The notes beneath the pieces are model-generated. The model did not search any database and had not been told where the DNA came from. It saw nothing but the letters and a program-made list of their open reading frames with translations. The translations under genes and the position numbers were made by a program. A stretch of 6,926 nt of DNA, taken from NCBI RefSeq assembly GCF_003334385.1, contig NZ_QOWN01000075.1. One strand, given 5' to 3'. The stretch's first letter is position 1, and each line of letters opens with the position of its first letter. This DNA is from Escherichia coli (GTDB lineage Bacteria > Pseudomonadota > Gammaproteobacteria > Enterobacterales > Enterobacteriaceae). Shown here piece after piece: positions 1,040 through 1,064 of the stretch.

Positions 1040-1064
1040 GGTCCCGGTCATCATGACCGGGACC
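1040..1064. repeat. Perfect 12-bp-arm palindrome (GGTCCCGGTCAT c ATGACCGGGACC) 21 bp downstream of the autotransporter stop
   Basis: Reverse complement of 1040-1051 equals 1053-1064. GC-rich stem but no following T-tract on either strand, so it is not a canonical intrinsic terminator. Confidence 0.7.

Follow-up and report, generated by a model that had tools for sequence, protein, structure and literature searches.

The window, by which we mean the whole stretch of 6,926 nucleotides analysed here, is a segment of an Escherichia coli pathogenicity island. It begins within agn43, which continues beyond the left window edge and ends with the stop codon TGA at 1017-1019; genomes identical at 100% name the gene 'agn43: autotransporter adhesin Ag43' in RefSeq. 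Over 940-1200, the window is 100% identical to CFT073 and a further 64 complete genomes, whose annotation there reads agn43 and IS66-family tnpA. Ten genomes matched the whole window at 99.7%, with the order agn43, ISEc49 (IS66 family), yeeR fragment and IS21-family element. The features are as follows.

1-1019, + strand: 3′ part of agn43 (antigen 43 autotransporter, beta-barrel end; ORF 45-1019, RefSeq annotation)
1020-1039, + strand: 20-nt spacer from stop codon to hairpin, poorly conserved between allele types
1035-1068, + strand: predicted extension of the stem (UCUG.U on the 5′ side, CGGA on the 3′ side) in the minimum free energy (MFE) structure of 1000-1110
1040-1051 and 1053-1064, no strand: palindrome arms GGTCCCGGTCAT and ATGACCGGGACC, 12 nt each, 100% complementary
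1065-1110, + strand: remaining 46 nt of the agn43-yeeR intergenic region before the insertion, with CCGGACC at the position of the cah-type T-run
1111-3854, + strand: ISEc49 (IS66 family: tnpA 1198-1527, tnpB, transposase), from genome matches and alignment
3863-4150, + strand: displaced remainder of the intergenic region and yeeR start (ATG 3891), from alignment and genome annotation

The palindrome and its insertion-sequence neighbourhood

Alignment showed 960-1110 of the window to be identical to the K-12 locus. Homology to the K-12 flu-yeeR intergenic region runs through 1110 and then starts again from 3855, so that ISEc49 spans 1111-3854. Its flanks at 1103-1110 and 3855-3862 carry an 8-bp target duplication, GCATTAAC, and its terminal repeats, GTGTCGTTACGGGGAAGTCAT and (reverse complement) GTAAGCTTCCGGGGAACTCAT, are imperfect. 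Its insertion point lies 46 nt 3′ of the hairpin and 28 nt 5′ of the yeeR ATG (3891). This agn43-IS junction is the one reported for the agn43a locus of CFT073, the copy from which IrmA is no longer expressed because an insertion sequence separates agn43 from yeeR (PMC4807369).

In the IS66 transposase region, 1900-3491, the ORFs at 1900-2673 and 2670-3491 are in different frames. An intact 521-aa gene is annotated there in the best-matching genomes, and the window, 99.7% identical to them, is 14 nt shorter; the region therefore seems to carry frameshifts. At 1231-1249, inside the IS66 tnpA, the minus strand has a terminator-like hairpin, AGGCAGCAACGTGCTGCCT with TTTCTGTT after it. Farther on, yeeR is interrupted by the IS21-family element (istA/istB, about 4270-6690). 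This element occupies about 4150-6800 of the window in all, with a frameshifted istA and an ISSso4-like istB, and its left end (about 4150-4270) is a run of repeats containing TTTGGCAT, typical of the multiple terminal repeats of IS21.

The initial annotation had described a perfect palindrome with 12-bp arms 21 bp past the stop codon, and the coordinates and the complementarity of the arms agreed with this. The sequence is GGTCCCGGTCAT-C-ATGACCGGGACC, with the single central base C1052 between the arms, and its first base is the 21st nucleotide after the agn43 TGA, leaving 20 nt of spacer. It is the longest perfect palindrome of the whole window, and a 12-nt arm was reached in only 1 of 300 dinucleotide-preserving shuffles. 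The exact 25-mer occurs once in the window, with 0 occurrences expected.

Folded as RNA, either strand gave an 11-bp stem with a 3-nt loop at −21.0 kcal/mol, and z was −4.6 and −5.1 for the two strands of the palindrome RNA. Seven pairs of the 11-bp stem are G-C, as expected of the G+C-rich stem-loop of an intrinsic terminator. The U-rich tract that follows the stem in a classical intrinsic terminator is absent here on either strand: no T occurs in the 12 nt 3′ of the palindrome (CGGACCGGCGCA), and the bases that follow it on the minus strand (ACAGAGAGGCGA) also lack T. A terminator scan of the window did not flag 1040-1064. The earlier statement that there is no T-run on either side, and that this is not a classical intrinsic terminator, thus holds in this context. 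A search of Rfam covariance models with the hairpin returned chance-level matches only (E ≥ 0.8, far below gathering scores).

For 1000-1110, the predicted MFE structure had −47.9 kcal/mol (z = −6.1). It includes an outer 8-bp helix of 1003-1010 (UGAAUGUG) with 1093-1100 (CACAUUCG), so that stop codon and hairpin would both lie inside it. One U·G pair of this helix is U-A in the 8178-type allele, through a change of G to A. The predicted outer helix and the change in it could be due to chance.

Distribution, allele architectures and stem pairing

The 111 nt around the palindrome were present in 2565 of 5426 complete E. coli genomes and, among the matches listed, adjoined agn43 in all rows. A shorter query of 35 nt found 3516 of the 5426 genomes; the additional genomes carry Ag43/Cah-family genes with a different downstream gene. 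In K-12 strains, the 111-nt query matched one place and the 35-nt query two places, which we read as both strands of one palindrome. All of the inspected copies (six besides K-12) begin 21 nt after the stop codon of an Ag43/Cah-family gene. The search for other copies that had been recommended therefore found the hairpin widely in the species, and tied to the 3′ end of Ag43/Cah-family genes.

This distribution disposes of one suggestion in the initial annotation, a REP-like element. REP or BIME sequences have many dispersed intergenic copies per genome. K-12 has a single site, and the inspected copies all follow Ag43/Cah genes, so a dispersed repeat is ruled out. A 19-nt core (CCCGRTCATCATGAYCGGG) was also scanned over 100,044 species genomes. 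It gave at least 120 single-copy matches in unrelated taxa, with no enterobacteria among the matches listed, the pattern being too short to inform on relatives. As a side observation, the core (CCCGGTCATCATGACCGGG) forms the stem of unrelated terminator-like hairpins in Mycobacterium, Nocardia, Streptomyces, Paenibacillus and Flavobacterium, and it also lies within coding sequence, in motifs such as PIIMIGPGTG (PIIMIGPG) and in ClC-channel-like sequences.

For comparison of alleles, metagenome contigs were scanned by a coding-end pattern, a sampling unbiased with respect to the hairpin, and a few chosen genome loci were added. A recognisable hairpin was found at 126 loci, which fell into two architectures: 70 loci without a T-run (type A, or yeeR-type) and 56 loci with a T-run (type B, or cah-type). 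In type A, represented by the window and K-12, the hairpin is followed by CCGGACC, yeeR, irmA, a different hairpin with TTTTTATTT, and a DUF905 gene. In type B, represented by cah as in O157, TTTTTACTTT and the DUF905 gene come directly after the hairpin, and the yeeR region is absent. Where type B has TTTTTACTTT, the window has CGGACCGGC. The terminator scan scored the type B hairpin, with its U-tract, as terminator-like, but not the type A hairpin. Judged by its sequence, the type B hairpin with its T-run has the form of a classical intrinsic terminator.

The hairpins of the two types are identical at 23-24 of 25 nt and lie at an equal distance from the stop codon. In contrast, the 20-nt spacers match at about 8 of 21 positions (a hand count on the alignment), and their similarity was not significant in local alignment versus shuffles (p about 0.4). 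Homology to the type B T-run and DUF905 start was seen in type A as well, in the stretch behind irmA. We also considered whether the cah-type 3′ UTR and hairpin are homologous to those of irmA, and whether the A-type spacer is related to the second hairpin, the one after irmA. Neither relationship was significant in alignments versus shuffles (p 0.2-0.9). The T-run and DUF905 start are thus all that the cah-type and irmA 3′ regions have in common. Because these are homologous while the cah-type and irmA hairpins and the spacers are not detectably related, the module boundary falls exactly at the junction of stem and T-run. One metagenome contig (L190) is a hybrid: its spacer and hairpin are A-type (pair 8-18 being G·U) and lead directly into a B-type TTTTACTTAC run and the DUF905 gene. 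Such a join at the stem edge suggests that recombination, or else an independent deletion, took place there.

Changes within the hairpin, numbered from its first base, were distributed over the loci as follows.

Pair 2-24: G-C to G·U at 6 loci
Pair 3-23: U-A to U·G at 3 loci
Pair 3-23: U-A to C-G, both sides changed, at about 50 loci
Pair 4-22: C-G to U·G at 2 loci (a third carrier, L146, was left unscored, having a 3-nt deletion just after the stem)
Pair 8-18: G-C to G·U at 18 loci, all but one type A
Pair 8-18: G-C to A-U, both sides changed, at 7 loci, all type A
Loop, central C: C to A at 6 loci

Changes in one arm were seen at 30 of the 126 loci, and true mismatches in the stem were limited to two singletons. 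Among the 18 distinct sequences, 99% of cells were paired, with two compensatory pairs and four G·U pairs. None of 500 shuffles equalled the observed paired percentage or the covariation score, and slid controls were 19-55% paired. All four of the common one-sided changes give a wobble pair on the + strand and an A·C mismatch on the minus strand. Since they are wobble-paired on the + strand only, sense RNA is favoured over a DNA half-site or an antisense RNA. These patterns suggest that selection acting on the sense-strand RNA maintains the base pairing, though the sequences are related and the independent events few (two). Template switching at a quasi-palindrome can transfer a change between the arms without selection, and the two-sided changes should be read with this in mind. 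The protein-binding site that had been offered as another reading of the palindrome gained no support, single-arm changes being common and strand-asymmetric.

In the compensated variant GGTCCCGATCATCATGATCGGGACC (L005 3039-3063, the type of strain 81009), the stem contains two new GATC (Dam) sites. These are probably a coincidence, although Dam does regulate agn43, at the promoter.

RNA 3′ ends and read-through at the hairpin

Through the identical 960-1110, the hairpin could be placed at 2074679-2074703 of MG1655, and published RNA 3′ ends of K-12 could be transferred to the window.

1063-1072, + strand: equivalent of the primary 3′ terminus of flu mRNA (MG1655 peak 2074702-2074711; dominant position 2074706 = 1067)
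1033, − strand: equivalent of an antisense RNA 3′ end (MG1655 2074672, 7 nt past the stem; PMC7815308)

For flu, the + strand peak is classed as primary; its R is 0.944 and its adjusted p values are 2e-68, 0 and 3e-18 (PMC10687069, Supplementary Data 2). In that study, R is the number of local read starts divided by the sum of local and downstream read starts, so that a high R means low local read-through. The dominant flu 3′ end (2074706) lies 3 nt past the stem in these K-12 data, from a sequence identical to that of the window. On the minus strand, 2074672 appears in two condition sheets with about 24,000 and 27,000 reads (PMC7815308, Supplementary file 1). This end is weak: its reads are near the lowest minus-strand values in the part of the list examined. 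A precise 3′ end immediately past the stem was therefore found on both strands, in K-12 rather than in the strain of the window. The initial annotation had held that a unique occurrence with no transcript 3′ end nearby would speak against its proposals; the 3′ ends published for K-12 do lie nearby.

The curated Term-seq list of PMC7815308 has no + strand end at the hairpin, which the phase state of flu might explain. The Rho table of the same study has no entry at the hairpin. Its sole nearby entry, 2072596 on the minus strand, is an antisense site sensitive to bicyclomycin, which lies within flu some 2 kb past the hairpin (PMC7815308).

Transcription also crosses the hairpin. RT-PCR over the junctions showed agn43-yeeR-irmA to be cotranscribed in an EC958 oxyR mutant, in which agn43 was up 121-fold and irmA 12.9-fold (PMC4807369). 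In a gcvB mutant of the K-12 strain NCM3722, flu was up 63.6-fold and yeeR 4.6-fold. Such damped induction over the agn43-yeeR junction could also reflect independent promoters and is only suggestive, since irmA has its own promoter in strain 042. The in vivo data all come from K-12 or EC958, strains other than that of the window.

Interpretation of the hairpin

We think it probable, with real room for doubt, that the palindrome encodes a 3′ stem-loop of the agn43 (flu) mRNA that forms the RNA end, blocks exonucleases and acts as a leaky stop, Rho and trimming being the inferred agents. Type A has no U-run, so RNA polymerase would not be released efficiently at the hairpin itself. Most transcripts would be ended or cut downstream, by Rho or a nuclease. 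Exonucleases working 3′ to 5′ would then trim them back and stall at the stem, leaving a stable agn43 message with a precise end, while a minority of transcripts would go on into yeeR-irmA. As a leaky stop and a stabiliser, the hairpin would set a high ratio of Ag43 to YeeR/IrmA. Because the element is palindromic, an antisense RNA could receive the same treatment. In the window, the read-through fraction would enter ISEc49, not yeeR.

The covariation on the sense strand, with its G·U intermediates, and the K-12 3′ ends near the stem argue for this reading, and so favour the RNA-stabilising 3′ hairpin among the options of the initial annotation. The downstream region fits less well. The 100 nt that follow show no C-over-G bias (26 C vs 24 G in K-12; 27 vs 26 in the window), so there is no obvious rut site. 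In the K-12 arrangement, the yeeR translation start lies 76 nt past the stem, and the little untranslated RNA that this leaves for Rho also counts against it.

Several known systems resemble this arrangement in part. Rho-dependent transcripts can end just 3′ of stable U-less stem-loops, which protect them from PNPase and RNase II (Dar and Sorek 2018). The agn43 hairpin is like this class in being a stable stem-loop close to terminator hairpins in size and energy, with no U-rich tail and a precise 3′ end just past the stem. It differs in lacking a downstream C-over-G bias, and in that yeeR starts 76 nt past the stem and part of transcription continues as an operon; Rho dependence and trimming would be features that the two share by inference only. 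With the cah-type intrinsic terminator it shares essentially the same hairpin at the same distance from the stop codon, but the window copy is without the defining U-tract. The REP hairpins between malE and malF are intercistronic stabilising hairpins in an operon. Like them, the agn43 hairpin lies between cotranscribed genes, where it would protect the upstream, highly expressed message and permit unequal expression; unlike them, it is single-copy and belongs to one gene family, and is not a dispersed repeat. Bidirectional terminators were reportedly described by Ju et al. in 2019 (cited in PMC7815308). One symmetric hairpin with RNA 3′ ends on both strands is a likeness to these; the agn43 hairpin differs in having no annotated convergent gene, no flanking A- or U-tract and a weak antisense signal. 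A literature search found no paper describing the agn43 hairpin, nor names in RIL-seq style for the flu-yeeR region; the hairpin is individually undescribed, though its 3′ ends sit in two supplementary tables.

A more specific history can be proposed tentatively, although we regard it as rather unlikely. An ancestral agn43/cah terminator may have been divided precisely between its stem and its U-run, with the yeeR-irmA cassette now lying in the gap. The result would be a U-less bidirectional former of 3′ ends with about a tenth read-through, which would also end a cis-antisense RNA from the yeeR start region.

An explanation that we consider unlikely is that the hairpin itself terminates in both directions independently of a U-tract, the RNA being released at or just after the stem, perhaps with NusA or NusG, and with neither Rho nor trimming. 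It could account for K-12 RNA 3′ ends 3-7 nt from the stem on both strands, for the low local read-through (R = 0.944) and for the lack of a C-rich rut-like tract downstream, and the stem is very stable (−21 kcal/mol). However, intrinsic termination in E. coli requires a U-rich tract for RNA release, and the end 3 nt past the stem is nearer than the 7-9 nt usual for intrinsic release. In addition, U-less hairpins at 3′ ends have been attributed to protection of Rho-terminated RNA from exonucleases, and cotranscription over the site is documented (PMC4807369).

It is quite improbable that the element chiefly serves a short cis-antisense RNA, of about 78 nt in K-12, whose promoter would overlap the yeeR start and which would end at the palindrome. 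Its terminus would be the minus-strand Term-seq end seen in two conditions 7 nt past the stem; a sigma-70-like GTAACA-18 nt-TATCAT is found on the minus strand about 78 nt upstream, and the RNA has a predicted fold of −35.7 kcal/mol. This motif lies at 3118-3147 of the K-12 locus (L002), or at about 3862-3897 of the window, past the IS, and overlaps the yeeR start. As a promoter it matches the consensus at only 9 of 12 positions, and the reads at the 3′ end are near the lowest minus-strand values in the part of the list examined. In an antisense RNA, each of the common G·U variants would turn into an A·C mismatch. Moreover, type B keeps the hairpin without any yeeR region, and in the window ISEc49 puts 2.7 kb between the putative promoter and the hairpin.

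Very improbable, in our view, is a functionless relic of a cah-type terminator whose T-run became separated from the stem. The same hairpin with a T-run does exist in type B, and a T-run with the DUF905 start follows irmA in type A, behind a different hairpin. Within type A, however, the changes from G-C through G·U to A-U preserve pairing. The adjacent spacer has diverged between the types beyond recognition, and in K-12 the main 3′ end of flu falls at the type A hairpin.

Least credible is an element acting at the DNA level with no RNA role, either a palindrome bound by a dimeric protein or a hotspot of recombination or cruciform formation at the junction of island modules: the perfect symmetry of the 12-nt arms, the yeeR-type/cah-type module boundary exactly at the 3′ edge of the stem and the joining of an A-type hairpin to a B-type T-run in L190 would agree with it, but one-arm changes are frequent and the four common ones form wobble pairs in the sense-strand RNA alone, in vivo RNA 3′ ends have been mapped to the stem, the scan found no adjacent + strand promoter, and no matching Rfam or other known motif was found.

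We return to the 3′ stem-loop of the agn43 mRNA. In most respects it is a routine 3′ UTR element. The paired allele types, hairpin with U-run and hairpin alone, provide a natural test of the contribution of the U-run. If the yeeR-irmA cassette did split an ancestral terminator, the locus would show how an operon can be extended in nature, through insertion where the stem meets the U-tract. Among the products of this operon, antigen 43 is a major adhesin under phase variation, and IrmA, encoded downstream, is a vaccine candidate for UPEC. The hairpin is likely the point at which agn43 expression is uncoupled from that of yeeR-irmA.
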